This document shows positions 29,318 to 50,300 of a DNA stretch of 64,000 nt, in pieces. The notes beneath the pieces are model-generated. The model had not been told where the DNA came from, did no database searches, and worked only from the letters and a program-made list of their open reading frames with translations. A program made the position numbers and the translations under genes. The DNA lies in NCBI GenBank assembly GCA_035084275.1, contig CM068764.1, positions 7,936,001 through 8,000,000 of the forward strand. The letters are read 5' to 3'. Numbering within the stretch: position 1 is the first letter of the stretch; each line of letters opens with the position of its first letter. The stretch comes from Hydrolagus colliei. Taxonomy: Eukaryota.

Positions 29318-29431
29318 TCTGTCTCTCACCCTCCCTTCCTCCCCCCCACCCTCACTCACCAGAGAGAAGAGGTTGGAGTGGCAATCCTCCAAACTCGCAC
29401 CGTTCGCCACCCAGCAGCCGGACGAACTCAT
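91..29431 (-). CDS. MED13: Mediator subunit 13 (CDK8 kinase module), complete 31-exon CDS, about 2164 aa
   Basis: Exons in transcript order (plus coordinates): 29360-29431, 24705-24939, 24414-24498, 23788-23871, 22986-23131, 22380-22574, 21649-21852, 20692-20851, 19842-19946, 18911-19597, 17297-17519, 16640-16730, 15686-15798, 15039-15132, 14308-14507, 13692-13888, 12517-13439, 11537-11716, 11107-11330, 10528-10720, 9470-9905, 8583-8802, 7807-7998, 6182-6405, 5514-5656, 4916-5074, 3926-4105, 3350-3483, 2959-3120, 1196-1296, 91-223. All introns are GT-AG with consistent phases; the total is 6495 nt ending in TAA at 91-93. Recognisable peptides include [73 protein letters not shown] (FBW7 degron region), [20 protein letters not shown] and [19 protein letters not shown]. 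Linkage to INTS2 and BRIP1 favours MED13 over MED13L. In-frame ATGs also occur at 29434 and 29437. Confidence 0.95.
1371..1605 (+). mobile_element. tRNA-derived Deu-core SINE, 5' and central part
   Basis: Head GGAGCCCTGTAGCTCGGTGATTAGAGCAC with A/B-box-like motifs, then core CATGGCTGTTTGTGGGACACTGCTGTGTGCAATCGGCTGCCGCG; same family as the copies at 2645 and 4550. Confidence 0.85.
1615..1810 (+). mobile_element. CR1 LINE 3' end fragment
   Basis: GAGCCGGCACAGGCATGGTGGGCTGAATGGCCTCCTCTTGTG followed by a TTCTATGATT-type tail, typical of CR1 3' ends. Confidence 0.7.
1840..2290 (-). mobile_element. Degenerate antisense CR1-like LINE fragment
   Basis: Motifs ATCTAACTTCCTCTTAA, TTCAACCAC...TTCCACATT and GGAGACCAG...ATACAGCTTTAACATTAC resemble the reverse complement of the CR1 ORF2 3' region. 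Confidence 0.5.
2645..2927 (+). mobile_element. Near full-length tRNA-head / Deu-core / L2-tail SINE
   Basis: Head GAGTCCTGTAGCTCAGTGGTTAGAG...GGGTTCAATTCCAGG, core GTGCGCAATTGGCTGCCGCATTTCGC, tail CACTTTACAGTATA...GTGAAAAGCACTGTA...ATTATT. Confidence 0.88.
3567..3795. mobile_element. Non-autonomous Tc1/mariner (Tigger/pogo-like) MITE, family A
   Basis: Imperfect terminal inverted repeats (GTAGACCTCGCTCAACG ... CGTTAAGCGAGGAC); related copies at 21931-22180, 41265-41510 and 48977-49211. Confidence 0.7.
4150..4490 (+). mobile_element. Old Deu-SINE (SacSINE1/AmnSINE-like)
   Basis: GAGTCAGAATGTTGTGGGTTCAAGCC head and GGTCTTTTGAATCCAACATTAAACCGAGATCCCGTCTGCCC core. Related decayed copies near 7140-7460, 8170-8290, 25170-25330, 37030-37150 and 58560-58810. 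Confidence 0.6.
4550..4840 (+). mobile_element. Full-length tRNA-head / Deu-core / L2-tail SINE
   Basis: GGAGCCCTATAGCTCAGTGGTTAG...GGGTTCCATTCCAGG, Deu core, and tail GTGAAAAATGCTATATCAAATGCAAGGATTATTATT. Confidence 0.9.
8880..9110 (+). mobile_element. 5'-truncated Deu-core SINE
   Basis: AAGTTTCCTTACTCCACAC...TGTTTGTGGGACACTGCTG...TATCAAAAAATGCAAGGATTATTATT. Confidence 0.85.
9968..10140 (-). mobile_element. Antisense Deu-core SINE fragment
   Basis: Reverse complement of the SINE tail and core: AATAATAATCCTTGAATTTGATATAGCAC...CAGCCAATTGCACACAGCAGCGTCCCCACAAACAG. Further antisense fragments lie at about 10315-10420 and 10790-10950. Confidence 0.85.
13495..13665 (+). mobile_element. Deu-core SINE 3' fragment
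   Basis: GGGACACTGCTGTGGGCAATTGGTTGCCGCGTTTCGCCC...ATCAAATGCAAGGATTATTATTATT. Confidence 0.8.
15812..15920 (+). mobile_element. Tigger/pogo-like MITE family B, half copy
   Basis: TACAGTAAAAGCCCGTTTATCCGGCACCC...GGACCTGGCCAATGCCGGTTAAA matches the left arm of the complete element at 58315-58517. Confidence 0.7.
16290..16540 (-). mobile_element. Antisense tRNA-head Deu-core SINE
   Basis: Reverse complement of the head (CTAACCACTGAGCTACAGGACTCC at about 16516-16539) and the core. Confidence 0.88.
20389..20545 (+). mobile_element. tRNA-head SINE, 5' part
   Basis: CTCAGTGGTTAGAGCACTTGCC...CCTGGGTTCGATTCCAGG...GGTCACTTCAATCCACAACTGTTTGTGGGACA. Confidence 0.8.
21065..21510 (-). mobile_element. 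Old L2 LINE 3' fragment
   Basis: The minus-strand peptide [17 protein letters not shown] matches the L2 ORF2 C-terminal motif (GxRAFS...LWNSLP); an AACTTGCATTT tail is present. Confidence 0.65.
21931..22180. mobile_element. Tigger/pogo-like MITE family A
   Basis: CACTTAGTCCTCGCTTAAC ... CGTTAAGTGAGATCTACTG; similar to 3567-3795 in the opposite orientation. Confidence 0.7.
24590..24665 (-). mobile_element. Extremely 5'-truncated young L2 tail with (CAA)n
   Basis: (CAA)n TTTACATTTATATAGCGCCTTTCACGTCGGGAGGACGTCCCAAGGCGCT, near identical to the tail of the L2 at 61189-62068 and to the reverse complement of 51290-51355. Confidence 0.8.
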
Positions 29432-29775
29432 CATCATCACGATCCCTGCATCGTCCAACAGACAGAGAGACACACACACACACAGAGAGAGAGAGACAGA
29501 GACACACACACACACACACCGAGACAGAGAGAGAGACAGACACACAGAGAAGACTTAAAAAAAAACACTCGACACCGAAGACAAGAGAGAGAGAGAGTGA
29601 GTGCGAGTGAAAGAGAGTGAGGGAGTGAGTGAGAGAGAGAGAGAGAGAGAGAGACGACAACAACGAAGACGACGAAGACGTCGTCGTCGACGAAGACAAC
29701 AACAACAACGACGACAACAACGCCTCCCGAGCCCGCCCGCCCGGGAGATAGACAGAGACAGAGAGAGAGAGAGGG
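29020..29775. repeat. Compound microsatellites (GA)n, (CT)n, (CA)n, (GAC/AAC)n around MED13 exon 1
   Basis: Directly visible dinucleotide and trinucleotide runs in the presumed 5' UTR and the start of intron 1. Confidence 0.9.
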
Positions 29776-29779
29776 CGGT

Positions 29780-30040
29780 GGTGATGGATTCTCTTCCACC
29801 CCCGCACCCTCTCCTTCGCTACTGGGCTGGGTTGCCGGTCTCCTCTCGTCTCCTCCTCTCCCCCCCCGCCCCCCTCCCCCCGAGGCCGCTCAGCTCGGCG
29901 GTCACTCGGGCTGCCTTTCGCTCCACACACTTAATGGCGGAGAGCCCCCGGTCACGTGAGCCCTTCGCCCGGCTCTTGCAGTGACCCGCGGCCGCCGCTA
30001 GGGGGAGCGCTGGTGGGATAGTGGGCGGGGGGGTTGGAGG
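29780..30040 (-). promoter_or_regulatory. CpG-rich putative MED13 promoter
   Basis: CpG-dense segment upstream of exon 1 with GC boxes, a YY1-like AATGGCGG (29933-29940) and an E-box GTCACGTGA (29951-29959). The TSS is not determined. Confidence 0.6.
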
Positions 30041-30164
30041 GTGAGTGGAGTGGGAACAAGACAGCTCTGGTCCAGTCAACCTCACCCACCTGTATGTATA
30101 CTGTATATATATATATATATTTTTGTATATGTATGGGTTTATATATATATTATATACCCTTAGA

Positions 30165-30920
30165 AATAATAATCTTTGCATTTGACGCAGCGTGGAGGGC
30201 CGCGTCGCAACATAAATCAAAGTTGTTGTTGTTGTTGTAGCTCCCTTTAGCCACTAGTCCTCTAGACACTTCACGGAAAATAACAGTGATCGTTGCAAGA
30301 ATAATGAATCCTTGCATTTAATCTACGCCTTCCAGACGTCTCGAAGCGCTTCACAGAACGTACCGTGAAGTGAATTGGCTGCGTATGGATGGGCGAAAGG
30401 CGGCGTCCCCCACACAAACGGCCTTGGATTGAAATGACCCATTTTATTATTGGTTTTTTTTGTTGGGGTGGGGGGGGGGGGGGTGGAGGAGGGATTATTC
30501 ATGGAGTAAGAAGGAAGCTTGCGTAAGGTTTCGCCCTAACCTGCCTGGATTCGAACGCAGGTCTCACCCACGCTCGTAAAGTGAGTGCATCTAACCACCG
30601 AGCTACAGGACTCCACGCTGTGAAGTGAATTGGCTGTGTGTTTTGCGGGGGGGGGTGGGGGGTGAAACGCAGCCGCTTGCCTTGCGCACGGCAGCGTTCG
30701 CGAAGCCGTGAATTGGGTGACCAAATTATTATTGTTAAACCAATAGCAACTGTTATCACGTCTTTCGAGACGTCAGCGCATCACAGAAATATACTGTATT
30801 GTGAATTGATTGACTGGATATTTTGCAGGTGAAACACGGCAACCAATTGCACACAGCAGTGACCCGCAAACAGTGGTACATTTGAGTAACCAAATTATTA
30901 CTGTTATTTGAAGGGATTGA
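30165..30920 (-). mobile_element. Cluster of antisense Deu-core SINE copies
   Basis: One copy with a tRNA head (CTAACCACCGAGCTACAGGACTCC near 30591-30614) plus additional tail and core fragments at about 30165-30230, 30620-30730 and 30760-30920. Confidence 0.75.
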
Positions 30921-31004
30921 GCCCGAGACCGTCCCTTTCAGTGTGTGGGGCTCAACACCAGGGACATACTACTTTACATGCGTGTGTTTAGTCCGTGCTG
31001 TATT

Positions 31005-31060
31005 CCTTCACAAGGTCACATAAGTTAAGCATTAACCTGATATGTTGGTGGAGGTCAGTG
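31005..31060 (+). promoter_or_regulatory. Putative liver-type promoter element (HNF1-like palindrome plus NR5A/ERR half-site)
   Basis: GTTAAGCATTAAC at 31024-31036 is one mismatch from the HNF1 consensus GTTAATNATTAAC. CAAGGTCA lies at 31011-31018 and AGGTCA at about 31052. All are about 350 bp upstream of the predicted start codon. Confidence 0.45.
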
Positions 31061-31392
31061 CTCTGTTGACATATGGCTTAATTTCAATCAAATGAAAAGT
31101 AGAAAAAGAAACTTCACTTCAGCTTCAGAGAGTAGCAGTGAAACACTGAGAACAAGGCAGGCAGAGAGGAAGATGCAGATTCAAACAAACAGAGAGACAG
31201 AGGTAGAGAACTGAGAGAGATATGTAGACATAAAAAGGGATAGAGAGACTCGAGAGACAGACACACACAACCTGAAGTTTAAATATTACTTTGGAAGATT
31301 GTCAACCAGGACACAAGGGGAAAAAATCCCTCTCTCTACAAAGGGGGAGGTGGGGAGGAGGGACAGGCACACAGATGGGAGGTGTGAGTTTA

Positions 31393-31949
31393 ATGTCCAA
31401 TTTGAGAGGCCGTACCTGCTACAAGGTTTTGACAGTTCAAGGTAAATTCTATTAATTTGAGCTAATATTTTAATTGATTCACGTCTTATTTTCCTCCCAT
31501 ATCCGTGCTGGTGCTCACTTCACCACTTGCGCTCTCTACTCTAATCCTACTCTCTCGTTCTTTCCCCATTCAGTCTGTGAGGGGGTGCTCAATCCTCCAC
31601 CAGAGCTCTCCGCTCTAACGCGTCTGGACGAGTGTTACAGACAGACCTACAGAACATTGTTTTAATTGTCATTTTCTCCCCTTTCTAGAATGTTTCTTTC
31701 TGGTGATAGTTTCGATTTCGCTCCTTCCCTCAACCAAACAATTCCTGCAGTCGGGCCAGAACATTACGTGGAACGAGACCCTCGGTAAGAAAGAAAAGTT
31801 AAGAGAGGATTTGTACGTGTGGGGAGACAGGGAGTCGGGCCAGGACTGAGGTGATTGGTGTGTATTGGCATGAACGTGAATGACGGAACTGTGGATTCTG
31901 GCAAGGATAGTGTTAGGGAAATCATCAAACAGATCAGTACTGTATCTAA

Positions 31950-31981
<32 letters not shown>

Positions 31982-34900
31982 AACTCCCTCCTTGTCTCTA
32001 TATCTGACTCTCTAGAAGTAGTTCTATATCTCTGTCTTTATCTCCGTCGCTTTCTACCTGTCTAGCTGTTTCTATCCGTCGCTCTCTGTTAGCGGAGATT
32101 GTCTCTCTCACGTCTGTCTCTCTCTGTTTTTAATCACTCTCTCATATCCTCGTCCTCCTCTTTTGTTCTGCTGAACAATCCACAAAATTAAATTGGTCAC
32201 TGTTTGAGAGACACTGCGGTGTGCAAACTAGCTGCTCGCGATTCGCCCACAAAATAAGATCCAGTAACTGCGCTTGGCAGTATTAGCTGTGGCTTTGAGA
32301 TATCTCGACAACTTGATAAGGTGCTATATCAAATGCAAGGATTATTTATGGAGTATTTCTTTTCCATCCCTCTCTCTATCACACACTCTGTCTCTTTCTC
32401 TATGATATTCTGTCACTTTCTCTCTCTGTCTCTCTCTCTCTCTCACGCCGCCTACCTATGTCTTTCTCATCTGCACCGCTCTCCTTCGCTCACCCTGTCT
32501 CTGCCTTTACGGCAATCTGTCACATTCCATCTCTCCGTCTTTCTCTTCTGTCCCGCACTCCCTCGCTCTCACTGTGTGTCTTCTCTCTTTCTCTACGGCA
32601 TTCTGTCACTTTTTATCCCTCTCTCTCACGCTGTCTACCTATGTCTTTGTCATCTGTCCCTCTCTCTCATTCACTCTGTCTCTTTCTCTGCGGCGTACTG
32701 TCACTTTCTCTCTCACTCTCATGTCCTTCTCCTCTGTCGCACTCTCTCCCTCCCTCTTTCTCTGTCTCTTGCTCTTTGTCAGACTGTCATTTTCTAATGC
32801 TGTCTCTCTCTCAGGCTGCTTACCGCTAAGTCTTTCTCCTCTATCACTTTATCGCTCGCCCTGCCTCTGTCATTATGGTGTTCTCTCATTTTCTATCTCC
32901 CTCACTTTCTCTCTGTGGCTGTTTCTTTATCTCTGACTCTCTCTTCCTCTCACTCTGTGACTGTCTCTCCCTCACTCTCTGTGACTGTTTCTTTCTCTCT
33001 CTCTGTAACTGTCTCTCTCACTCTCTCCGTCACTCTCGCTCGCTCTCTAACACTTGCTCTCTCCCGCGACTGTTTTTCACTCCGTAACTATCATACTCTC
33101 TCTCTGTAACTATCACTCTCTTCCTCTCTGTGTAACTGTTACTCCCTCTCTCCCTCTCACTGTAATACTCTCCCTCTCTCACACCCACTATAACATCTAC
33201 CTCTCTCCCTCACTCTAACACTCCTTCTCTCCCTCACTCACTGTAACCCTCTCCCTCTCTCTCCCTCACTCTAACACTCTCCCTCACTCAAATATCTCCT
33301 TCTCTCCCTCACTCACTGTAACCCTCTCCCTCCCTCACTCTCCCTCTTTCCCTCACTCTAACACTCTCCCTCACTCTCACACTTTCCCTCACTCTCACAC
33401 TCTCCTTCTCTCCCTCACTCACTGTAACCCTCTCCCTCGCTCTCCCTCACTCTAACACTCTCCCTCACACTTTCCCTCACTCTCACACTCTCCTTCTCTC
33501 CCTCACTCACTGTAACCCTCTCCCTCTCTCTCCCTCACTCTAACACTCTCCCTCACACTTTCCCTCACTCTAACACTCTCCCTCACACTTTCCCTCACTC
33601 TCACTCTCCTTCTCTCCCTCACTCACTGTAACCCTCTCCCTCGCTCTCCCTCACTCTAATATCTCCTTCTCTCCCTCACTCACTGTAACCCTCTCCCCCA
33701 CAACTCTCCATCTCTCCCTCACTCACTCTCCCCTCCCTCTGCCTCTCTCCCCCTCTCTCTAACCCTCTCCCTCTCTCTAACTCTCTTCCCTCCTTCCCTC
33801 CCTCACTCTCCCCTCCCTCTGCCTCTCTCTAACCCTCTCCCTCCCTCTCTCTAACTCTCTCCCTCCCTCTCTCTAACTCTCTTCCCTCCCTCCCTCACTC
33901 TCCCCTCCCTCTCTCCCTCCCTCTCTCTAACTCTCTTCCCTCCCTCCCTCTCTCTAACTCTCTTCCCTCCCTCCCTCCCTCTGCCTCTCTCCCTCTCTCT
34001 CTAACCCTCTCCCCCTCTCTAACTCTCTCCCCTCCCTCCCTCTAACTCTCTCCCTCTCTCCCTCCCTCCCTCTGCCTCTCTCCCTCTCTCTCTAACCCTC
34101 TCCCTCTCTCTAACCCTCTCCCCCTCTCTTAACTCTCTCCCTCCCTCACTCCCTCTCCCCTCCCTCTGCCTCTCTCCCTCTCTCTCTAACCCTCTCCCTC
34201 TCTCTAACTCTCTCCCTCCCTCCCTCCCTCCCTCTCCCCTCCCTCTGCCTCTCTCCCTCTCCCTCTAACCCTCTCCCTCTCTCTTAACTCTCTCCCTCCC
34301 TCTCCCCTCCCTCTGCCTCTCTCCCTCTCTCTCTAACCCTCTCCCTCCCTCACTCCCTCTCCCCTCCCTCTGCCTCTCTCCCTCTCTCTCTAACCCTCTC
34401 CCTCTCTCTTAACTCTCTTCCCTCCCTCCCTCTCCCCTCCCTCTGCCTCTCTCCCTCTCTCTCTAACCCTCTCCCTCTCTCTTAACTCTCTCCCTCACTC
34501 CCTCTCCCCTCCCTCTGCCTCTCTCCCTCTCTCTCTAACCCTCTCCCTCTCTCTTAACTCTCTCCCTCACTCCCTCTCCCCTCCCTCTGCCTCTCTCCCT
34601 CTCTCTCTAACCCTCTCCCTCTCTCTTAACTCTCTCCCTCACTCCCTCTCCCCTCCCTCTGCCTCTCTCCCTCTCTCTCTAACCCTCTCCCTCTCTCTAA
34701 CTCTCTCCCTCCCTCCCTCCCTCCCTCTCCCCTCCCTCTGCCTCTCTCCCTCTCCCTCTAACCCTCTCCCTCTCTCTTAACTCTCTCCCTCCCTCTCCCC
34801 TCCCTCTGCCTCTCTCCCTCTCTCTCTAACCCTCTCCCTCCCTCACTCCCTCTCCCCTCCCTCTGCCTCTCTCCCTCTCTCTCTAACCCTCTCCCTCTCT

Positions 34901-36370
34901 CTTAACTCTCTTCCCTCCCTCCCTCTCCCCTCCCTCTGCCTCTCTCCCTCTCTCTCTAACCCTCTCCCTCTCTCTTAACTCTCTCCCTCACTCCCTCTCC
35001 CCTCCCTCTGCCTCTCTCCCTCTCTCTCTAACCCTCTCCCTCTCTCTTAACTCTCTCCCTCACTCCCTCTCCCCTCCCTCTGCCTCTCTCCCTCTCTCTC
35101 TAACCCTCTCCCTCTCTCTTAACTCTCTCCCTCACTCCCTCTCCCCTCCCTCTGCCTCTCTCCCTCTCTCTCTAACCCTCTCCCTCTCTCTTAACTCTCT
35201 CCCTCACTCCCTCTCCCCTCCCTCTGCCTCTCTCCCTCTCCCTCTAACCCTCTCCCTCTCTCTTAACTCTCTCCCTCCCTCACTCCCTCTCCCCTCCCTC
35301 TGCCTCTCTCCCTCTCTCTCTAACCCTCTCCCTCTCTCTAACCCTCTCCCTCTCTCTAACCCTCTCCCTCTCTCTAACTCTCTCCCCTCCCTCCCTCCCC
35401 TCTCTGTGTGTCAGGTTGTGGGCGCCCTGTCACCCCGCTGAGCCCCGTGCAGCGGATCCTGTTAGGCCGGCCGGCCTCGGGCTCCAGCTTCCCCTGGCAT
35501 GTCCTGGTGCTGACACCTCACCGAGCTGCCGGGAGCCTCATCAGCCGCCGCTGGATCCTGACGGCCGCCCACACCCTGTACCCTAAGGGCCTGGTCCGGC
35601 GAGGCGCCGAGCGCTTGGCCGAGGGCTTGACGGTGTACGCCGGCAGCGGCAGCCTCGGGGAGCTGCTGGCCTCGGCCCCGCTCGGGGTGGCGGCCGTCAC
35701 CGTGCACCCGGGCTTCGGGCCCGAACCTCACAACTTCGACAACGACATCGCGTTGCTCCGGCTCCGGCGGGAGGTGAGGCTGAGCGGGAGCTTGTCGCCC
35801 GTCTGTCTCCCTCAACCCCGGGGCCTCTCGTCGGCATCGCCGCCGTCTGGGCCTGCGCCTGGACGCCGGGCCGGGACTGGGCCCGAGCCGGAGCCTGGAC
35901 CTCGGGTCGGGACTGGGCCCGAGCCGGAGCCTGGGCCTCGGGTCGTGACTGAGCCCGAGTCCGAGCCTGAGCTGAGGCCCGGCACCGTAGGCCTAGTCCC
36001 CGGCTTCGGCATGACCGAGGAGTACGTGATGCCGGACGCCCTGCGCTACGCGGTGCTGCCGACGGTCTCCGCCGCCGACTGCCTCCTCTCCCTGGGCCCC
36101 GAGCTGATCGCGGGCCGCCGGCCGGTGCTGACCGGGAACATGCTGTGCGCCGGTCCTCCCGGGGGCGGGGGCGCCGACTCCTGCCTGGGCGACACCGGCG
36201 GCGGTTGGGTCACTTACGACCCCCGGGCCGGGCGCTGGCGGCTGGGGGGGATCGTGTCGTGGGGCCTGGGCTGCGGGAGGCCCGGGCACTACGGCGTGTA
36301 CACCAGGGTGTCCCGTTACCTGCCCTGGATCCAGCGGGTCACCCGGGCCAGTGAGGAGGAGAGCTCCTAA
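31393..36370 (+). CDS. C1r/C1s/MASP/haptoglobin-family serine protease homologue (S195T); predicted three-exon secreted protein
   Basis: Predicted exons: 31393-31441 (MSNLRGRTCYKVLTVQ, donor CAAG|gtaaat, alternative in-frame ATG at 31375); 31689-31784 (acceptor ttttctcccctttctag, ECFFLVIVSISLLPSTKQFLQSGQNITWNETL, donor CTCG|gtaaga); 35415-36370 (acceptor tgtgtcag, GCGRPVTPLSPVQR|ILLG...TAA). All junctions are phase 1. The protease exon is very well supported, exon 2 moderately, exon 1 least. Confidence 0.7.
32360..35405 (+). repeat. Pyrimidine-rich (CT)-based low-complexity tract grading into a 72-bp minisatellite
   Basis: Almost pure C/T on the plus strand from about 33100. The unit CTCTCCCTCACTCCCTCTCCCCTCCCTCTGCCTCTCTCCCTCTCTCTCTAACCCTCTCCCTCTCTCTTAACT recurs at 34981, 35053 and 35125 (72-bp period). 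Confidence 0.95.
35415..36370 (+). CDS. Intronless trypsin-fold domain exon of the C1r/MASP/haptoglobin-like gene
   Basis: Motifs CGRPVTP..QR|ILLG, SFPW, WILTAAHTLYPK (His 35570-35572, as in C1r), NFDNDIALLRL (Asp 35744-35746), PVCLP, GFG, NMLCAG, DSCLGDTGGG (Thr ACC at 36194-36196), GIVSWGLGC and YGVYTRV..YLPWI. The C42-C58 histidine-loop cysteines are absent. Uninterrupted ORF to TAA at 36368-36370. Confidence 0.92.
35873..35980 (+). repeat. Coding 36-bp tandem repeat (3 copies) in the protease domain
   Basis: GGGACTGGGCCCGAGCCGGAGCCTGG(A/G)CCTCGGGTC twice plus a degenerate third copy, encoding GTGPEPEPGPRV GTGPEPEPGPRV VTEPESEPELRP. Confidence 0.9.
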
Positions 36371-36429
36371 CCCCCCCACCCCCCCACCTCTGACACTCAA
36401 CTCACATCATCATGATTTACTATAAACCT

Positions 36430-36765
36430 TCTAAGTTTCCTTACTCACTTATTAATTTACTTACCTACCCCCCCCACCCCCCAACACACACACCCTCCTC
36501 CTCCTCCTCATTATTATTAATAATAATCCCTCAAAACAAAAACTCACGCAATATTAATACTGATAATAAATTGGTGCCTTCAACCCGCGACTGTTTGCAG
36601 TCTGCGCGCCATCGGCTGGCTGGCTGGCTGGCTCGCTGTCTGCCTGCCGCGTTTCGCTCACAGTCGATTCCCTTCCACACGGTATTATATTCCCGCCAAG
36701 GGCGCCTCCAGACGTCTCGAAGGCGCGATAAGGCGCTGAGTTCAGATGCAAGGCGTATGTATTAC
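36430..36765 (+). mobile_element. Degenerate Deu-core SINE just after the protease stop; contains AATAAA at 36565-36570
   Basis: AAGTTTCCTTACTC, CGACTGTTTGC..., GCCGCGTTTCGC and CAGACGTCTCGAAGGCGCGATAAGGCGCT...GATGCAAGG. Confidence 0.6.
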
Positions 36766-38304
36766 TGCCATTGCTATTTGGGGGTTATCGTGACGGCTTG
36801 GGAGGCGCCGCGCAGAGCAGAACGATTTCTTGAAATGGAATCGCGGATCAACCCGAAACACTTGATCCATATTTCTTTCACCCGCCTGTGAATGAGACTG
36901 AATAACCCAGGATACTGCGCACACACACACACACACACACTGTAAAAAGATGAGCCCCCGAGAATCATCCTCATCTCTTTTCGTAGCCTCTGGGTCAGAA
37001 GGCTGACCGTTTCGGACTGACATTGGAAACTCACTGCTGGTCAAAGCTGAGCCTCCAATGCAGCACTGGGGGGTGGGGGGTGCGTTGTAGGTGCCGTCCT
37101 TCAGGTGAGATGTTTAACTGACGTCGCAGGCGATGAAAGATCACAGGGTATTTTTAGAAAACAGATTCTCTCTAACGGTGTCTTGGCCGGCAAGCTGTCC
37201 AGGTGAAACAGCTGTGACCTCGACGAGAGCTGTCTCCGTGCTGCGGGACGGGCTCGCACAGGGAGTGGCCGAAAGGGCAGGCTTGAATGCGTTATTTGAA
37301 GTGATCCAGGGATTTAGCAGCGACTTTATTTTTCCCCCTGAGGGGATTGTTGCCATGGAACTTTAACATTCACAAAGACAGCCGGGCAGGACTTTAGTTT
37401 GACGTCTGATCCAAAGGACGGCACCCTGTGTTAATGGCATTGGATTGTGTGAATCTAAAGCCGGGACACGAACTACAGGTTTGAAAAATTGTAAAGCTAC
37501 TTTTCAAGCATTTGAGTTTCATCTGCTCATATCGTCAATAATCAGAAATTGGATACTATCAGTTTAGAATTTTTAAAAATGGGAGCCATACAGTCATGTA
37601 GTCGCTTCAGAAGTGAAATCCGAGCAGGCCGTCTGTACATATTTGGCTTTTTGATTGTCTGCATTACCAAGTATGGATCAAATATAACTGACCTGTTTTG
37701 AGGAGATTGAGCAGCATCCAGAATATAAAATAATTTTATTTGGGAGTTTAAAAGCATGATATTCACAAAGGAGAAGTATGGCTGGTAACTGGAACCACGT
37801 CACGAGAACCCTCTTATTAGTAGGTTATTGCGAAACATACCCAGTCACCATTGAGACTCACGGCACTATTAGTGGTGACTCAAATTATGAATATCTCATT
37901 TCGGATCCAATCGCTACAAAATCTACAAATTCTTGTTTACCAGTGAAATGAACTGATCCAGCACATGCTCTAATATATAAAAGGATATATGAACATCAGG
38001 GGGAAAAGTACAAAGATAAAAGTGATCCCTTGTCTGCAGGGTTCAGCTCTTGACAAGGCTGCAATCCAAAAAACCTCAGCTGCAAATGCTGTCCATGTGT
38101 GCTGGCAGAACAGGGAGCCAATGATTCCATTCTTCAGCTAAACGTTCACCCCCCCCACCCCCCAAATTGTACTGAAGTTCGGAGGTCTTCTGCTTTTGCT
38201 GATAAAACATTGAAGCTTCAATTGCCCCTTCACTTCTCGACAGCCCATGCTGCACCACACTTTTGATCTTCACAAGCGCAGATCGCGTTTTAGCGGTCCT
38301 CGTA

Positions 38305-41300
38305 CTATACTCCGATAGAAGCTGTATTGATTATTTCCAGAAAGGTTGCTTCAACACACTGGCAGAGCTGAACCTCTGGGTCAACGCTCTCTGGTCCAGG
38401 AGGCTCCCCTTTCTTAACCGGGTCTGAAGCTGCTTCTCGACAGAGATGAATGCCCCCCTCTGTTCTCTCCTTTAGGTATTTGAGACCTGCAGAAAATAAG
38501 TCACATCCAAATGAGAGAACGAATGTACATTTTGAACAAACAATACCTTATTCTTGAAAATGAAAGCTTTTTTTTAAAAAAAAAACATGCTAGATGTTTT
38601 TGGCCACCTTCATTCTGGTTGATAATTTGAACACTTGTTAACAACAACAATAACAACTTAGATTTATATAGCGCCCTCACTCCATGCCAGACAATGTCTC
38701 AGAGCGCTTCATAATAACGGATCGCAGGGCCAAGCCAGGGAGAGGGGGGGGGAAAGTAACCAAAAGACTGGGGTAACTGGGGAGCAAAGTAGGCGCCGAT
38801 GGGAGCCAAGCATTAAGGCTTCAGACTTAATGTTATCTGGAGAAAGTTATCAGAACTCATCCAGGACTTGATGAAACAAGACAACCAGAACCCAAGGTGG
38901 GAACTGCCAGTGGACAGAGAGGCTAATGATGTCTGTTGACTTCACCAGACCTCTCGCCAACGTGATAAAAGTACTATATTCACTATAGCGATCAGTAGAA
39001 CTAAATGAAACTAAATGAGCGATATTTCTAGCCAACAATTGGTTGCAGTGGAGAGATATAGAATCAGAATCTTGCAGCACAAAAGGCAGTCATTCAACCC
39101 AACATTTATGGATCTGCTCAGTAGTCAAATCTATAAATCAGCAATTGAGCAGGTGATACATACGTGTAATGATGGGGTCAATATCCGGAGCCTGAGTGGC
39201 AACATGTGAGGCACAAACTTGTCCAATTTGGATCAGTAATGAGGTTACATCATCATACAGCGGAGGAAATGCTCGACAGAAGGATATTAAACAGGGCAAC
39301 GTTGGCATGAAGAATGCAAATCGCTTGGCTTGGGTCAGAACTGTCGATGGAAAACACAATACAATACAAAATAAACTCTTTGCTTTACACTCTTTTCAAT
39401 ATGAAAGTTGAATGTGTGCCAGTTTTGTGCTCCTTTCTTATCGCTGAATACACCTCCCTTTAAAAGCATATGCAACTAGGGATAGACTAAGTGTTGTTCC
39501 TATGCATTTTCCCCCAATGATCAGAGGAGATTTGAGTGAAACCTGTGAGCAGGTCGCCCACCTTCTTACATAAGAAATGCTAGATTAAAAAAAGCCAACG
39601 TTCATCTTGTTCGCCTTCCACATTCCTGGCAGTCGCATGCACATATGTCCTGAACTACTGCTGTACTATATCCCATAACATTATTTCCCCTTAACTGAAG
39701 TTAACAATAAGAGAGACCTTACAAAGGGCAAAAGCACACACAAATGCCCTAAGCACATCCTCACGTACCTTTATACAATGCATGAAAAATTTAATCAGAC
39801 AATTTAATCGGTAAAAGACATGCCCGGGCCTCACCTGTCAGGATTGTTTGCATGACATTTATAGATAGACGAGCAACACTGAGAGATTTGGGTAAGGCAT
39901 ACTGGATGCACAAGTGGGATAACAGCTGGATTGCGAAGATCTGAAGAGAGACAAAAATCATTCTGTTACAATTATAATACATCAAAAGACCGAGGCCTCC
40001 AGATGCCTTAGTGAATTTCAAAAAGAGCATCATTTTTAGGAGAGATGAGGGGTGCTTCAAACCCACAACTCCTCAAAGAAAAACATTACGTGAACCGTGA
40101 CGGGTGATGGACAGAGCACCTGATGATCATGATTCCACTGATGCAAGTTTCACAAAACTCATACATTGCACAAGTCATATTAAATGTTTGCCCCCAACGG
40201 ATAAAAGATTTATGTGATGCTCACTGTAATGCAAAGGATTTGAGGGAAACCTGAAGCTGGAGACATGGAGATATTAGACTCGCTCTGAATTCGAGGAATG
40301 CTGCAGCTGTTATGGTCGAACACAATTTAAAACTTGAACGTAGATATTTATTGGTAGCACAGACTGCATTCAAAAAATTATTATTTTTTAAACGCATTAT
40401 TTTTGTTTTCTGCTCCATTTACGCACAAGGGATGAGGAAAAAAAAGTACTGAAAATACTTTAGTTCAGCAACTTTCATGCAGCTTCAGTTTGCCTGAGGC
40501 TTGAGGGCAACAGCCGGGACCACTCTCTCTAACAGGAAATGGTGCATAATCTTGAGAGATCAATAGAGATTACGGGCAGGGGGCAACATTTCAAAATCAG
40601 AGCTCAAATGGTTGGAACCGAGGTCAGGAAGCATTTCTTCACCCAGGGATACGGAACGCTCTGTACCAGATACCACAGGGGCCAAATCAACAAGAGATAC
40701 TTTGAAAGAGAAATAAACTGAGAGACTTGGGTTGTAGAGGGCAATAGGGGTAGATGTAAAGCTCGGGGCACCCCACAAATATAGTCAATTCACGTTACAG
40801 TTTATTCTGTGAAACGCTTTGAGACATCTAGAAGATGTGAAAAGTGCTAGATCAAATGCAAGGATTATTATTATGGGCATTGAGAATAAAAGATTTGACA
40901 AGATATAATAAATACAACAACAAAATATTTCTAGAGCGCCTTTCACATCAGGAGGATGTCCCAAGTCGCTGAAAATAAGCTTGATGGGCTAAATGGCATG
41001 CTTGGGCTCTTGGTTTTGATGTTCTTTAATGGATTTTATAAACCTGAAAGGATAATATTTACCTGTTTCTCTAGCTGAGGCTGTGCTAAGAGCTCTGGGA
41101 TGAAATCTAGGCAGATGTGCATAGAGGGTATTCCAGCCACTGTCAAGGGCAGCAATTGACTCGGGTAACCCTGTTCAAGCAAAACCCACAAAATTAAAAT
41201 TCTCATTTCACCAAGCCATGGAGCTAAGACCATCATTTTCACCATGTATTATTATGACTACTGTACAGTACACTTAGTCGTCGCTTAACTTCGCAGTTAC

Positions 41301-44300
41301 GTTTGCGAAAAGGGAGACTTTAAGCAAATCGCACAAGAATATCGCTCATTCAGCATCTATGTATGCCTACGCTATCCAAAGTAATTTGTTTCCACCCGCG
41401 CGTAAGATGTAACAGCGAAAGTCACGACGTTAAATGAATTATGTTCCCTTTGTATCAGCAACGTAATAATGAAACGTTGACTAAAGCAATGTTAAGCGAG
41501 CTATACTTGTCTCAGCTTGTCCTATCTCAGCTTTCACTCACCATTTATACAGCAGCACAAGTCATCAGTTTTATTTATCTCAAGTTTTAAAAAAAAGTAT
41601 TCCCAACTATTTATATCACACCTTTCAATAGAATTTAATACTACAAGTGCTAATACTAAAATAACACCCCATTGAATAGAATTGAATAGAAAATACTACC
41701 TGAAAGTGAACCAGTTTGGCAATGTTAGGGTCTGCAATAAACATCTGATGCAAAAGACAGCAGATAAGACACTGAACCTCCCGGAGATTGCTCAATAAAT
41801 TCTCCTGACGGTTCTCAGATGAGCTGGATGACTTTCGGACTCCGGCTGCGCCGTTAGCATTCGTCTCAGCGGGTAAGCAAATCTCCAGCAGAATCTGAAC
41901 AGCCGCACTGTCCTGTCAAGAAAACGTACTTGTCATTGGGTGTCAAAAACAACTTGGATTTATATAGCGCCCTCACTCCACGCCAGGCGGCGTCTCAGAG
42001 CGCTTCGTAATAACGGATCCTGGGGTCGAGCCATGGAGGGAAACAACAATAACTTGCACTTATCAGAAGCGCATATTAACCAATAAGATAGGTGATCATC
42101 CCAGTAAATCTCACATTCAAATTGCTTCTATTGTTGGTATTTTTTTTAAATGTAGTGATCACATTACAATCTCTTTCCACTGCATTTTTGTCATCTTTCT
42201 CCCACTCTGGCAATGTGGTGCTGCTGCCTCATCTGCCTAATCTAATGATAATGTTGATGATGCAGTTGATATTAATTAACAACACCAAGTACCAAGAACT
42301 CCCTGGGAGACTCGCAGACAGCAGAATAGCTCAGCGTGAATTACACATAAGAGCTTGGCTAACATCCTCCAACCTTCGGATCGGCTGACGAAAGCTGACG
42401 CTCACCCACTCACCAATCACTCAATAGACCAAGGCAAAATAATGGCATCAGAGAGCATTGTGGAGTCCGTCTAGCTTGGTGGTTAGAGTACTCGCATTAC
42501 AAGCATGAGACCCGTGCTTTGAATCCAGGGTCAGGGCATATTATTATCAAGACCAGAACAGAATTGTGCGGATGATTTGGTGTTTACCTGTGCTGAGAAC
42601 AAGGCGTTTTTCAATTCCTCTCTCGTGACCTCTGGGGCTTCAGGCTGTCCCATTAACCCAATGCTATTGCTCTGGTATGGCTTGCTGTCCTGCTCCATGT
42701 TTTCCTTCAGATGAGCATTCAGGTAGGCCTTTGAAGCGAGAAGGTAGCCATTGAGCATGTGCAGAGTGATGTCCATTAAAGAGGGGCACCTGGAGTCCAC
42801 AAAATGGGCACAATTACAAGAACAATTCAATGGTCCCATCGAAACCGCTTGAAATAACTAACATGTTCAGTCAACCACGGCAGCGTTCTTAACAATTGGT
42901 TGGAGCCCGGGGCTCACCTGTACACTCGACGGTCGCATCGCAATACAATCAGCGGGTCGATCATCAGGTCATTCTGTGTGTACTTCTGCTGTCTGAGTAG
43001 CTTGGCTTTCGGCTGCAATGCATTCACGGTCATCACCCACAGCCTTCGGAAACATGAATGGGGTTTTAAAAACCAGCGTTGATTGGTAATCCACGGAAAC
43101 GGCTCCGGCGAACTTTGCTACAATAAACTCCCCCAAATGCCCCAGGAAGGAACCGGAGAAATTTACGGTAACAGAAGAAGGCCATTTGCCTGTGCTGGGT
43201 CTCTGAAATATAATCTTTTCTACCACATTTTCATGCCATTTTACCATGCCTCTGTAATCAACTTTTTTTTTACAAAAGGTGTGTCTAGTTCCCTCTTGAA
43301 GGCCAATATGGAATCTGCCTCCCTTCAGGACATTCCATATCATAACTGCACGTTAAAAAAAATCTCCTGATCTCCCTATTTGTTCATTTGTTCCAGCCGA
43401 CGTGAGAGGCGCTATTGTTCTATGTTAAACTCGATGCCTCTCTGGTTACTGATTCACCAACCAGCGGACATAAGTCCTTGCAATTGAGCATCAAAATCCC
43501 TCGTCATTATTTTAAAGACCTCGTTTGGAGGTCTCACCCCTTAACCTTCTTTGTACAGTACCAGCAGGAAACAAAAAATTCTGTTCCCATCTCTGTTCAA
43601 AGGCCAAACCCATCTCTGGCAACATCCTAATGAGGATGTTTACCAATATCATTAATAATAGTTCACCCACCTCCTCGGCATCACGGTATTGAGAATCATC
43701 CAGAGCTTGTTGACCGTCTGTAAGATCCGTTGGGGAACACCCGACTCCAGCAGTCGGTACAAGTCTGACATCAATTCCTCAGCGTAAGGGATCAGCTGGC
43801 TCGCTGTCAATAGCGTCAGATCCTCCAAGACCTGCATCAGTTGTGTGTGATTGGCAGGGACCATTTGGAAGGCTGGTAATAAGATGGCAATTATAATTAA
43901 GCGGGCCAACCTGTCTCTGTTGTTAGCACACTCGGCTCCAAGTCAGTCAGAGGATATGGGATTAAGCCCCAAGTCAGGAATGTGAAGTCACTCCAGTATA
44001 CGAGTAATTTTGCGTTTGCTTTTAAGAGCCTACCTTCTTGCAGTTGTGTTGGCGAGTGTCGTTTGGCCTGACTAGTCAACAGCATCCTGCTCAGCAAAGC
44101 ATCCGTGCCAGTCACCTCCTCCTCACACATCCAATCATCCACCATGCACAGATGAGGGTAGTTTGTAGCCAGCAGACGCAACAGTGCAGAGTGCAAACCT
44201 ACAGAGGAGGAGAGTAGCATTCGAGTTCAAGTTCCACTTTTCAGTGATAACAATCCTTGTATTTAATATAGCACTTTTACGTCGTGAGGATACCTCAAAA

Positions 44301-47300
44301 ACCACCATGTAGACTTTGACTATTTTATTCGGGGAAGATTGTTGAGGAGAAGCCAGAGAGAAAACTCCCCTCCACTTCTCAAATAGTTTCATGGGGTCTT
44401 TAAGAAAGTGTGCATTAGGCTTTGCATCTGTCCTCGTTTAAGAGTAACAGGGCAGATATTTGATAGAACACATAACGTTCATGACACAGTGCCCAACATG
44501 TGACTTGAGAAGCCACAACATTCTGACTCAAAGTACTGTTCTACTGAAGGAGCCTGGATGACACCAAGTCTTGTATTAAAACTGTATGGCTGGATGCTTT
44601 GTTCATGTTGGGAAAAGGGGGCTGCAATCTGTGGATCCTACTGCACACTAAAGTTCTTACGTAAGTGTTCGTCCCATACCTCCTAGCTCCTGTTGGCGCT
44701 CTTGTGCCTGACGAATCAAGTATTTGATTGGAATTTGGTCCATTAGTGCTGAAGAATAGGACTTGAGTTTCTTTTTCGCTGTTGCTATTTAAAAAAAAGT
44801 AAGATTAAAAGTACGAGTTAGTGCAAGTCTGAGCAAGGACAATACAGAAATCCACCAGTCTTGGCTCAAACAATTTGGATTGGTTAATATTTAAGATACA
44901 GTTGATATAGATGATACATTATGAGATACATTCATATGGTTCTCTGGCTCAATGGGAAGAGTCCGAACCGCTCTTACCACTGCTCAATTTGACATATAAG
45001 TAAAAACATTGTAACTTTAAGATCCTTAAGACTACAGAGAAGACTGTATCCTTGTTCCTGTACGGAAGAGATGTAAAGGTTTTCCTGAGGCGAAAGAGGA
45101 GATTCCAATCCTTCGGTAAACATAAAATCATCTTTTTATCAATACTTTGCCTAGAGATCTGTGCCAGACTTCAAGAAGTCTGCATCTCACACCACCTGAC
45201 ACTGAGAACTGAAAACCTGTACTTATGTGGAGAAATCTGTAACCAAAAATAAATTAAAATTTCCATCAAGGAAAAAAAACACTTACCTAATGGTTTCGTA
45301 TTAGTTAACAGGATTTCCTCATATGAGAGTGTATAATATAGGACCAGGAGTTGGGCTGTGATACTATGCCGTTGTCGGAATCGGTTGTTTTCTCCCTGTG
45401 TACAAAAATTGAAAGATGAAATGTTTGCAAACTGGTAAAAGTAAAGCAGCCAGTTATGTTTCTAAATTCAGCTACATGAGGCTAGTGTGTGTGAATTTTT
45501 GTGTGGTGGGCGGGTGGGGGGGGGGGGGGGGGAGGTTTGGTCTGGGGCTAGTGATTTACTGTATTTTATGGATGGTGGAGCTGGGGAGACAAGCGAGGAG
45601 GGCATTTAAATAGTTGAGGCGCGAGGTGCCGAATGCGTGCGTCTGCGGTAAAATATGGTTGGAAGTGGGCAATGTGGCGGAGTTGGAAGAAGGCAGTCCT
45701 GCTCAGGGATTGGATGTGGGGTAGGAAGCCTAACTGTGGTTTCTGCTACCTTTGCAAACCCTACACATCCTTTTCCTTTCTTCGCTCAGCAAGCACTGGC
45801 CTGCTTCATGTCCCCCAAATGAATCAACAGGTTTTCAGCCTTTGTGCCCCGCTCTGTTACTCCACCCCACCGACTCACTCTCTCCCTCACCTTGTTCAAG
45901 AGATATACCTTTGACTGCATTTTCAGTCAACTTTCCCCTTCCCCACCCCTCTCAGCTCCCCCCAGCAGCTCAGGTGCTAAGCCACAATGTCCTCCCAATG
46001 TGAAAGGCACTATATAAATGCAGATTGGGGTCTATGGGGATTTACTTTAAGGCAGTTCCCCCCTTGATGCTCATCTCACCCAAGTAAGGCCATTAAATAC
46101 GCTGATGATCTCCTGCTCAGTGATGGGCTGGTTGGTGGCTTCTGGGTTAGCCTTGGATGCTGGAGTCAGGATGGAATTGATGTAAACGTCAATCAGAGGA
46201 ATTAGCTGAGGGTGCAGGGGTGTCACTGTTTCACACATCTGCTTGTAAATCCAGTCCTATAGAGAAACCCACAAGTCATCTTAAAAGCACGGTTTATTCT
46301 CAACAACTTTCAAAAGAAATATTAATTACTGTTCGTCGAAATTTAAAGTACAGAAGGAGGCCATTTGGACCATCAAGTCTACACCTGTCTAAGAGTTAAG
46401 GTATTCATTCAATCACAAGCTGTGTCTTATCCCCATACTTCTTAGTTTTTTTCTTTCATATACGTGTCTTAATCAAAGGCTCTCACTCACCTTGATGGAG
46501 ACCTTGTGTTTCGTGAAAGCACGACTCCTCAGCAGTTGGTATATGCAGTGTATTGGGAGGAAACCGGTGATGGTAGCACTTAGGTTACTCGTTACAGGCA
46601 CTCGAACAGCATGAGCTGTTACCACCTAAAATAGAGGGGGGGGGGGAAAAATACAAAAGTTTCAAAATCAATATGGATTTATAATATGCTCATCAAGTTG
46701 ATAATTGTGGAACATTAAAAGTACATTTGACAAGATGTTATACTAACAGATTGAGGCAGAGTGAACGAGCTAGGCTGGCATTTGCAGGTTCCTAAACTGA
46801 GACAGAAGATAGCCACCGGTTTCTATTAAATCAAGTGGTAGGCTGGCTCAGTTTGTAACACTGTTATGCCGAGGGTAGATTGCAAGATTAAACCCAGGTT
46901 GGGCATTAGACTGATGCCAGAGGGAAGAGGAGAGATAGTAGACTGGGCATATCCCTTATGCTCTGAGATCTAGACTTGCTCACATCTGAATACTAATAAT
47001 ACTAATAATCCTTACATTTGATATAGTGCTTTTCAAGTCTTCTAGACTTCTCATAGTGCTTCACAGAATATACTGTAAATTGACAAAATTTGTGGGCGAA
47101 ACGTGGCAGCCAATTGCGCACAACAACAACAACTTTGATTTATACAGCATCCTCTACGCCGGACAGCGTCTCAAGAACGCAAGCAGTGTCCCCACACAGT
47201 TGTGGATTCAAATTACCAGATTGTTATTATAGTGGTTTTTTTGGAGGGATTATTATTATTCGTGTGTCACTGACATCCTGCTCCAAGATTTCAGATAAAA

Positions 47301-50300
47301 TAAACCCAAAGTGCGTGAGTAAGTTTACTCACTTGCTCTGTAAAGATTTCCTGTGTGAAGATGGTTTTCATTCTGTTCAGTGAGCTTGATTTAATTGCAA
47401 TCTAAGGACAGAAATCATAAGCAGGTTATGCACACTACTCTTCGGGTGAGATTTTAGTTGTAGCCAACACAGCAGAACGGTGGATTCAAACATACCTTCA
47501 TCCCCAGAGTGGAGCAGACCAAATCGATGATGGCACTGAGCTGGTTGCTGTGAAAATACATTGCGACCAAAAGCAGCATCTCACCAAAAGAAGCAGACAC
47601 ACCTGTAGTGCTGGGATACACACAAGAGAAAATGGGAGAATTAATTCTCCTATTAAGTAATTCCAAGCCAATCATGATACTTTCAACCTAAAGGTCAGTT
47701 CCTCAAGGGTACTCCTAAGGATACAATTCATATTGTAATCACATTCAGGATTAAACTGACTAACGATTTATACACATTGGTGCAGTGACCAATATTTAAC
47801 CTCACCTCTCAAAATACGCTTCCTCTCTGATCATCCAACTCAACCACATCACAGTCATTTGTTCCTGTTCGGGGGTGCTGCAAACAAAGGTTAACGTCAG
47901 CATAAATCTCTGAACGTAAAAGTGAAAACATGCAGTTAACTTCTTTAGTAGCTTGTAAATAAAATATTTCAATACACTGCTAGAGCAAAGCATGAGAAAA
48001 TATGACTATTATTATTGAACGCTTACCTGACCAGGCTTGGAAAGGCCAACAGCATGCAGAAAGAGAGGGAGACAAAGCGGACCCCAGCTGGAGTTGTTGG
48101 CGGACGGCTCGTCATCAACTGTAAGAGCTGCTCCGCCTCCTCGTCAGTTGGCCTAGACAAGTCCACAAACGAGACAGTATTACATCAAGACCGCAGACCA
48201 GCGGATCAAAACATCAATGACGTGCGAGACGAGAAAAAAAATAGGTCGGTAAAGCAAACAATGCAGTGACTTTAAAGGATGAGCCACTCAAAAATAACCT
48301 ATAAATAAAATTTGGTCATTTCAATCCACGACTGTTTGTGGGGGGACTCAGCTGTGTGATTCCAGCCCTCCGTTGGCACTCTTAGAAGTCCTTATGCAGG
48401 TTGATATCCAGTGCTACATATTCATGTGCCAATCAAAGCCCTGACAAAGATTGCATGGAGTGATATAGCTCAGGATCAGGCTGTTTGACCTAACTAGTCT
48501 ATGACAGAGTTTATACTCCACATAAACCACACACCTCCTAATTGTATTGATAGCCAAACTAAAGCTACCCCAGCAGCTGGGCTCCAGTAAGATTTCTGTG
48601 CCTCAATCCCCCCAATTTATATTGTATTTCCTAGACCTCATCAGCACCAACGGATTATAAACCAGGCATGCCTACTTGAGACCAGCAATTCCCATGAGTG
48701 CACAGTAGAGTCGCAGGAGTGCGCTGGCCTTCACCACGTTCTCTTCCTTCAGTGCGGAGTACACGGATATGTTAGGCTCCATGTCCGTGTCCGCCGTGTC
48801 CTCGCCAAGACGGCCGCTGCTGACCGTGGGAAGAATCGCCATCAGCTCCAGCAACAACTGACGCCTCATCTGCCACAGCACCGAGCTGCTCATCTCTCGC
48901 TTCCGCTGTTCAGCAAAACACAGATTCCATGACTTCAAACACTGTTTTGGGGGATTGGGATTCAGCGAGCTGACTTGTAAGTACACTCGCTCAACATCGC
49001 AGTTGTGTTCACGAAAAGTGCGAATTTAACCAAAACAGCGAATACCGTCCTATGTACGCCGTGTGATATACAAAGTAGTTCATTTCCACCCGCGCGAACG
49101 ACATAATAGCGAACGTCCCGACTTTAAATGAATATATGTTCCCCTATGTATCAGCAACGTAATAATGAAACAATGTTGACCAAAGCTACATTAAGCAAGG
49201 TCTACCTGTATTGGTAATCTCTAAAATATCTTAAAACCTGTAGAATGTTGTGCTTTAACACTTTAAATGTTTTAAAATCTCGCCCCAGGCCTTATTATCA
49301 GTGCAGATTTATTTTGCTGCCACTTCCTGCTGCAGTCTGACATGTTATTGTTACTGTTAAATGTCTTTCCTCTGCTACCAAAATGTTTTTAGCATCACTA
49401 CAAAACACTTCTTTCTGCCCTCTAGTGGCACAGTGAGTTTGTTTGTATAGCTGAGTCTCGCATTCAATTACTGTACCTAATCTGTGCTGAGTTAGCTGAT
49501 CCGAGTTGGGAGTGCTATAATTGACTGCAGGTTCCTGGGAAGTGTTTGTGTGTGTGTGAGGAGGGAAAGAAACAAGCTAGGTTTCCTGCTTCAGATCAAC
49601 AACTGCCACTGGAGATTGAATGTGCTTGATTATCGGATGAGGGCAGGATTTCATTGTGAACTGTGCAGAATTTAAATAACTTGGCACGCTGAACAGTGAA
49701 AACTCTCAAGGCTAATGTTTTGCCTCTCGGGAATCCCCCTCGTGAGGCGAGTGCCCGAAGCAATATCCTACAGGACTCCCCCATGATTGCTTTCACTAAA
49801 CCAGTTTCCCCTCCAACTACAATTTAAAAAAAACTCAGGATAATTGTGTCGGAAAACCCGATTGATTTGTCGTCAGCTCCTTACCTGTTGGCCATTGCGG
49901 ATGAACATTCCAAACCAGGTCCTCACTTTTGCATTGGTCCCAAGCAATAAGCCGCTGACAAACGAGACAAGATCAGTCATTTGATCCTCAGACCCGTCAT
50001 TCTTACACTGATCTAATGTCAAAGCCACTCCAAGGCCTGGCAGGTGACACTCCTCTACCTGTCACCAATGCAGAATCATTATTGAAACAGGATCAATATT
50101 TTGAGAATTCAGAGCAAGGAAAAATGTAAGGATGATAATTTTAAAACTTTAAATAGGGACGAGAAAGTAAAATCCAGAACTGTACTTTCGGATGCTCCTA
50201 TACGTTGGATCACATCAACTGTGTGCAAGCATAAGTAGCATTGTGTGTATGAAAGCAGCTCTTACCACCATGGCTCGGATATTTGGGGCCTGGGTGGGAT

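Follow-up and report, generated by a model that had tools for sequence, protein, structure and literature searches.

The window analysed here is the whole 64,000-nucleotide stretch of the Hydrolagus colliei genome at positions 7,936,001 to 8,000,000 of contig CM068764.1. It contains a three-exon gene, at 31393-36370 of the plus strand, that encodes a small trypsin-like protein. The gene is genuine and conserved, represents a branch of C1r in cartilaginous fishes that has apparently not been named, and combines a minimal architecture with a His-Asp-Thr triad. That the gene is a conserved C1r paralogue of chimaeras and sharks, and that it has no CUB, EGF or CCP modules, can be stated with high confidence. 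Position 195 (chymotrypsin numbering), where the catalytic serine would be expected, is threonine in all 14 family sequences and is encoded in the window by ACC (36194-36196). A preliminary description of the gene, made from the letters alone, had missed this replacement.

Gene structure and relatives in sharks

Exon 3 (35415-36370, 956 nt) encodes an intronless C1r-type S1 protease domain, which includes the interchain Cys1 and runs to the stop codon (36368-36370). The exon has a phase-1 acceptor, and its open frame of 317 codons contains all of the key residues. Exon 2 (31689-31784, 96 nt, phase 1-1) encodes the hydrophobic core of a predicted signal peptide, followed by a short linker that contains two N-glycosylation sequons. 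Exon 1 (31393-31441, 49 nt) is single-copy in the genome and ends in a phase-1 donor. This exon and its start codon are predictions from splice scores. There are two in-frame candidates for the start, the ATG at 31393 and a second at 31375, and neither has a strong context. A start at the ATG of 31690 was ruled out, as the resulting phase-2 end would not permit an in-frame join to exon 3. The coordinates, lengths and phases first given for these exons were found to be correct, with GT and AG ends and in-frame joins.

The exon model was scored with a simple custom splice matrix. Within 29900-35500, 31689 was the top-scoring acceptor and 31441 the top-scoring donor. In the region 29900-35400, 31689-31784 was the sole open internal exon with a phase-1 end. 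Over the whole window and both its strands, 25 candidate exons passed the thresholds, and 31689-31784 was the only one to contain a 10-residue stretch with a hydropathy of 2.5 or higher. The only sequencing run available yielded a contig across 30863-31950 that is unspliced and has no differing letters. It behaves as DNA and may be the source of the assembly. The core of exon 2 (31692-31725) loosely resembles the signal-peptide start of the C1r exon in the same genome (FLV-x-x-S). No match between the two was found with blastn, and the likeness is too short and too biased for homology to be called.

Relatives of the gene were identified in public gene sets from 12 named sharks, along with one partial protein (79-80% identity). 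The genera are Heterodontus, Pristiophorus, Mustelus, Cetorhinus, Carcharodon, Chiloscyllium (two species), Rhincodon, Stegostoma, Scyliorhinus (two species), and Heptranchias. The automatic names of these proteins are inconsistent and include C1r-like, haptoglobin-like, and MASP2-like. Ten complete shark models, nine of which stand alone and one of which is the second half of a fused Heptranchias model, share the short form, in which a signal peptide leads through a short glycosylated linker to the protease domain. In these 10 models the N-terminal leader and the Ser/Thr/Pro-rich linker together span 59-66 residues, a sequon lies 8 residues before Cys1 in every case, and there are no CUB, EGF or CCP modules. 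The Pristiophorus model departs from this pattern at its N-terminus, and the family includes two partial entries. No long form of the family was found among the 607-2000 aa proteins searched, evidence that the search tool itself calls weak. The searches, which were non-exhaustive, one of them having missed the known partial member P0151, brought up no member from rays or skates, and no absence is claimed. A metagenome scan gave no relatives among 169 pattern matches, and the ESM Atlas returned only generic insect trypsin clusters.

The minimal architecture that was first proposed is therefore real and conserved, as it is found in the exons of the window and in the 10 complete shark models. The absence of CUB, EGF and CCP exons from the window was also confirmed. 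When six full-length C1r, C1s and MASP2 proteins were used as tblastn queries, the protease exon was the only match, and the best match besides it had an E value of 0.12. As a positive control, two of the six queries recovered CUB, EGF and CCP exons upstream of paralogues on two other contigs of the genome, C48 and C30. The gene had further been called an undescribed lineage. This was right in that the lineage is distinct and no description of a Thr195 C1r family was found in the literature. It was wrong in that orthologues in public shark gene sets had been overlooked. A 2024 survey of complement domains covers, in the portion of it that was available, other partial C1r-like forms in Chondrichthyes and not the Thr195 family (PMC11312191).

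Exon 3 contains an in-frame 36-nt tandem repeat of 3.1 copies (35857-35969), which inserts a segment rich in Pro, Glu and Gly into the loop that follows Cys122. The insert is unique to the window protein among its relatives, and the confidence of the structural model is low there. The gene model of the nearest relative is without the insert region and the adjacent conserved residues, possibly a modelling gap. A long repeat within a coding exon raises the question of whether the window copy has been relocated, is decaying or is not translated, with 5' exons that are chance matches. The leucine at position 18, the weak start-codon context, and the lack of alignable similarity between exons 1-2 and the shark N-termini would fit such a copy. 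This explanation is very unlikely. The frame is open for 317 codons with the key residues all present, the protein is 80% identical to its nearest relative (the corresponding C1r pair is at 76%), and exon 2 alone among the 25 candidates has the expected signal and sequon content.

The remaining features of the gene lie outside its exons. Predicted intron 1 contains a dispersed repeat (31484-31620). Of the interval 31340-31860, only this part has matches elsewhere in the genome, 50 in number and 68-90% identical. Intron 2 contains a CT-rich tandem array (33142-35397). No exon start is possible in 33001-35400, because the plus strand there is without AG. A candidate polyadenylation signal, AATAAA, is present at 36565-36570 and is the sole A[AT]TAAA in 36371-38000.

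Placement with C1r and the question of haptoglobin

The exon 3 protein has human C1r as its best match in the PDB (E 3e-47) and matches the Trypsin profile (E 6e-39). Its predicted structure (pLDDT 81) has MASP2 and C1r as the best fold matches, with a TM score of 0.92 over the C1r light chain. The gene had been assigned to the intronless C1r/C1s/MASP group, and this assignment is upheld by the single-exon protease domain, the phase-1 acceptor, and the missing Cys42-Cys58 bridge.

A tree was made from 64 of 65 extracted protease domains. Domain 2 of Clupea was excluded as degenerate, and the partial P0151 was excluded as well. The 13 family rows form a single clade (support 100/99) whose branching follows the species, and the window protein and its nearest relative are sister to all of the sharks in the tree. 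The residue make-up of three family rows, including that of the window, was flagged as unusual by the tree tool. The family clade lies inside the C1r group (95/92), that is, with C1r rather than with C1s, MASP2 or MASP3. The full-length chondrichthyan C1r proteins form a separate clade (99/97), which includes the C48 gene of the same genome and Callorhinchus V9KI64, a pairing that would fit a holocephalan source of the window. The order within the C1r group is not fixed by the tree. The AU test (p 0.45) is compatible with a sister relation between the family and chondrichthyan C1r, and the duplication would thus be at least as old as the split of chimaeras and sharks.

A lineage distinct from the canonical C1r orthologue had been proposed, and it is borne out by the separate clade and by the missing CUB-EGF-CUB-CCP-CCP modules. 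The family shares with C1r the best PDB match, the tree group, the intronless phase-1 protease exon, the absence of the Cys42-Cys58 bridge, and Asp189. It differs in its missing modules and in Thr195, and the genome has a modular C1r gene at another location. C1RL and other truncated C1r-like proteins are also C1r duplicates with fewer modules, and turtle, newt and teleost examples are included in the tree. However, these are on other branches and none has His-Asp-Thr; the turtle protein has CUB and CCP modules and Ala195. For complement evolution, the family contributes a chondrichthyan branch of C1r that has no name of its own and carries wrong labels in databases.

The family has evolved more slowly than canonical C1r in three of three matched species pairs, which share branches. 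The changes per site were 1.05 versus 1.57, 1.29 versus 1.87, and 0.56 versus 0.97 for the family and C1r, respectively. The slower rate argues that a function has been maintained.

The reduced form raises the question of whether the gene is the haptoglobin of chondrichthyans, or a lineage sister to haptoglobin in an early stage of catalytic decay. The outline of signal peptide, short chain and inactive domain is that of teleost haptoglobin, and the loss of the catalytic serine is likewise shared. Four of the shark members carry the automatic name haptoglobin-like or haptoglobin-related, and the open position of the clade within the C1r group leaves room for such a relation. The sequence had also been described as a mosaic of C1r and haptoglobin. 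This is not supported, as the supposedly haptoglobin-like motifs are also found in rows outside the family, ordinary C1r-group proteins among them, in a set without haptoglobin. Among the 52 non-family rows, QRI[LI]GG is present in 8, SFPW in 12, L[RK]Y[AV].LP in 10, and YGVY in 29.

Human haptoglobin scores far below C1r. With the N-terminal half of the domain (residues 1-133), it gave 55 bits and C1r gave 91 bits, and with the C-terminal half it was absent from the best 60 matches; a gap in bit score does not settle orthology, as haptoglobin evolves fast. A 40-residue search for haptoglobin sequences returned only four family members. The searches made for tree rows brought up no haptoglobin, and the clade is therefore placed relative to C1r, C1s and the MASPs only. 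Haptoglobin has lost His57 and the SWG motif, whereas both are kept in all 13 family rows, together with Asp102 and Asp189. A nurse shark haptoglobin is on record (UniProt H9LEQ0; PMC10707392). The family clusters include close relatives of the nurse shark and no nurse shark entry, an indirect point that assumes H9LEQ0 to be in the collection searched. Orthology to haptoglobin is thus disfavoured by the sequence comparisons and appears improbable. If haptoglobin falls elsewhere in the tree, the C1r scaffold would have been cut down a second time, in this family, to a signal peptide and a disabled protease domain.

Threonine at the catalytic position

Positions 42 and 58 were numbered by reference to rows of protein C and factor VII, in which both cysteines are present. 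The window protein has Ala42 (35525-35527) and Thr58 (35573-35575) at these positions, and thus no bridge. All 13 rows have His57 (35570-35572), Asp102 (35744-35746), and Asp189 (36176-36178), which lies at the floor of an S1 pocket of the trypsin type, and all have Ala42, Gly193, Asp194, Ser214, Trp215, and Gly216. By these residues the oxyanion hole and the S1 pocket are intact. The predicted activation site, Arg15-Ile16 (35453-35458), aligns with that of C1r and is Arg-Ile in all 12 rows that cover it. Other positions vary. Residue 58 is Val in four rows, Ile in four, Thr in four, and Ala in one, and where C1r has Gln192, the family has Ala, Gly, Val or Leu. A single invariant site proves little in this clade, because 100 of its 266 columns (38%) are invariant.

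The ACC codon for Thr195 is one change away from AGC. An AGY codon for the active-site serine is a feature of the intronless C1r/C1s/MASP2/MASP3 protease group, and the paralogues on contigs C48 and C18 have AGT for serine.

The family was compared with 485 non-family S1 domains, a set that is biased toward the matches of the query. Thr195 occurs in 12 of these domains (seven proteins), and 11 of the 12 are without His57. Thr195 together with His57, Asp102 and no bridge was found in none of the 485. His57 and Asp102 are both kept in 32 of the 73 domains outside the family that have lost the serine, including 17 of the 22 with Gly195, and His57 is retained in four of nine non-serine paralogues of C1r and C1s. 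His57 and Asp102 thus often survive the loss of the serine. The first domain of marmot ovochymase-1 is another natural His-Asp-Thr, with Cys42 and Cys58 kept.

The protein is likely secreted, activated by cleavage, and nearly inactive as a protease, and it would bind substrate-like partners as a decoy or cofactor. This is the favoured reading, with about an even chance of being correct. A C1r duplication before the split of holocephalans and sharks may have retained a single protease exon and a signal-peptide exon. One base change would then have turned the AGY codon for serine into an ACY codon for threonine. The protein would be exported as a glycoprotein and, having no CUB-EGF part, would not attach to C1q or MBL. 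A trypsin-like enzyme would cut at Arg15, the short chain would be held by Cys1-Cys122, and Ile16 would pair with Asp194. The Asp189 pocket formed in this way could bind the Arg or Lys sites of a partner, such as a complement substrate, a zymogen or a serpin, with poor turnover by Thr195. The clip-domain homologues of insects, for which cleavage is needed although they do not cut, are a precedent for this pattern.

Several points speak for a binder, among them the frequent survival of His57 and Asp102 in domains without the serine, the many invariant columns of the clade, the replacement of Gln192, and the behaviour of engineered enzymes. S195T "greatly compromises" thrombin and trypsin, an effect attributed in part to a clash with Cys42-Cys58. 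Removal of the bridge improved trypsin only "marginally" on amide substrates and corrected only "some" of the deficit of thrombin (PMC8695361). The replacement thus cripples both enzymes, and removal of the bridge rescues them only in part.

Several observations weigh against a decoy or cofactor. In the 14 sequences, over 2.3 changes per site of tree, Thr195 has nowhere given way to Ala or Gly, and the whole catalytic set is intact in the 13 rows. His-Asp-Thr is rare, since nearly all of the Thr195 domains outside the family have lost His57. The partner is hypothetical, and secretion and expression are predictions. In addition, human TSP50 is reported to be active with His-Asp-Thr and to need Thr310 for its activity (PMC3344824).

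The main rival is a working threonine protease of low turnover, in which His57-Asp102-Thr195 would cut after Arg or Lys in one specific plasma substrate. The route of secretion, cleavage at Arg15 and pocket formation, with no docking on C1q or MBL, would be shared with the binder. The change would have been enabled by the earlier loss of Cys42-Cys58 in the C1r group. The conserved set of residues, the absence of His-Asp-Thr without a bridge from the non-family domains, and the TSP50 precedent all favour such an enzyme. Five of the 13 rows have exactly the C42A + C58A/V + S195T set. This set is said, in a paper citing Baird 2006, to convert trypsin to a threonine protease (PMC3835919). However, the rescue in engineered enzymes is partial, and the domain set used for comparison is biased. 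Most of the C1r/C1s/MASP group had also lost the bridge before Thr195 arose, and 16 of 52 non-family rows have Ala42. The loss of the bridge is therefore a permissive background and not a demonstrated case of co-evolution. A threonine protease is less likely than the binder, but a serious possibility. Were it true, a module-less His-Asp-Thr enzyme would have arisen from a C1r copy whose fold was already without Cys42-Cys58. Loss of this bridge is also the change by which engineers made trypsin accept Thr195, and the enzyme would have been kept under a constraint above that of C1r since before the chimaera-shark split.

The family and the engineered trypsin and thrombin share the same residues at 42, 58 and 195 in those five rows. 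The family differs in being natural and kept across the chondrichthyan tree. TSP50 (PRSS50), from human testis, also has an S1 domain with His-Asp-Thr (PMC3344824, as above), but by its description it does not belong to the complement group, and an independent origin seems probable. Two enzymology papers, one of them a 2026 preprint, hold that no trypsin-like protease with Thr195 has been identified in nature. A claim that the family is the first natural case was considered and is ruled out by the claim for TSP50 and by the scattered Thr195 domains. The reason that trypsin-fold enzymes use serine and not threonine is still argued from engineered mutants and simulations. The 14 natural His-Asp-Thr sequences, which have no Cys42-Cys58 bridge and vary at 58 and 192, make the question testable on evolved proteins.

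Neighbouring genes and other complement proteases

At the level of gene family, the neighbours are as first described. INTS2-family sequence lies to the right on the minus strand (39198-53494), and MED13-family exons lie to the left, also on the minus strand. The MED13-family gene matches the MID_MedPIWI profile above the cut-off and Med13_C below it, its start codon is at 29437, and no match to the Med13_N profile was found anywhere. It is presumably MED13 rather than MED13L. The start of its first coding exon (29360-29437, minus strand) seems more like MED13L, and a later exon more like MED13. Tracts of (GTT/GTC)n and (CT)n lie upstream of this exon. The sequence at 30150-30880 is a high-copy repeat by read depth.

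The shark members of the family are located on chromosomes of 91-406 Mb or on small scaffolds. In Heptranchias, the fused model (XP_067833377.1) joins a C1r protease exon to a whole Thr195 gene lying behind it, on a contig of 40 kb. This fusion hints at a tandem origin. Given the sizes of the shark chromosomes and the placement behind a C1r exon in Heptranchias, the position between MED13 and INTS2 may be particular to the lineage of the window.

The C1r gene of the genome (C48:1276986-1283229, plus strand) itself appears altered, with position 189 occupied by Asn instead of Asp. Exons for residues 179-309 of Callorhinchus V9KI64 (CUB2 and the start of CCP1) were looked for in it and not found. 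A second CUB1-like copy is present on the minus strand at C48:1245928-1246149, and no second protease exon was found within 49.9 kb around the C1r gene. No active C1s or MASP2 protease exon was found among the scored candidates, which are lower bounds. A C1s-like gene is present in two protein-identical copies on the minus strand (C30:39358-40146 and C30:114932-115720). These encode an inactive domain with Thr57 and Gly195, in which Cys42 and Cys58 are present, and the domain pairs with one from Heterodontus at 100/99.

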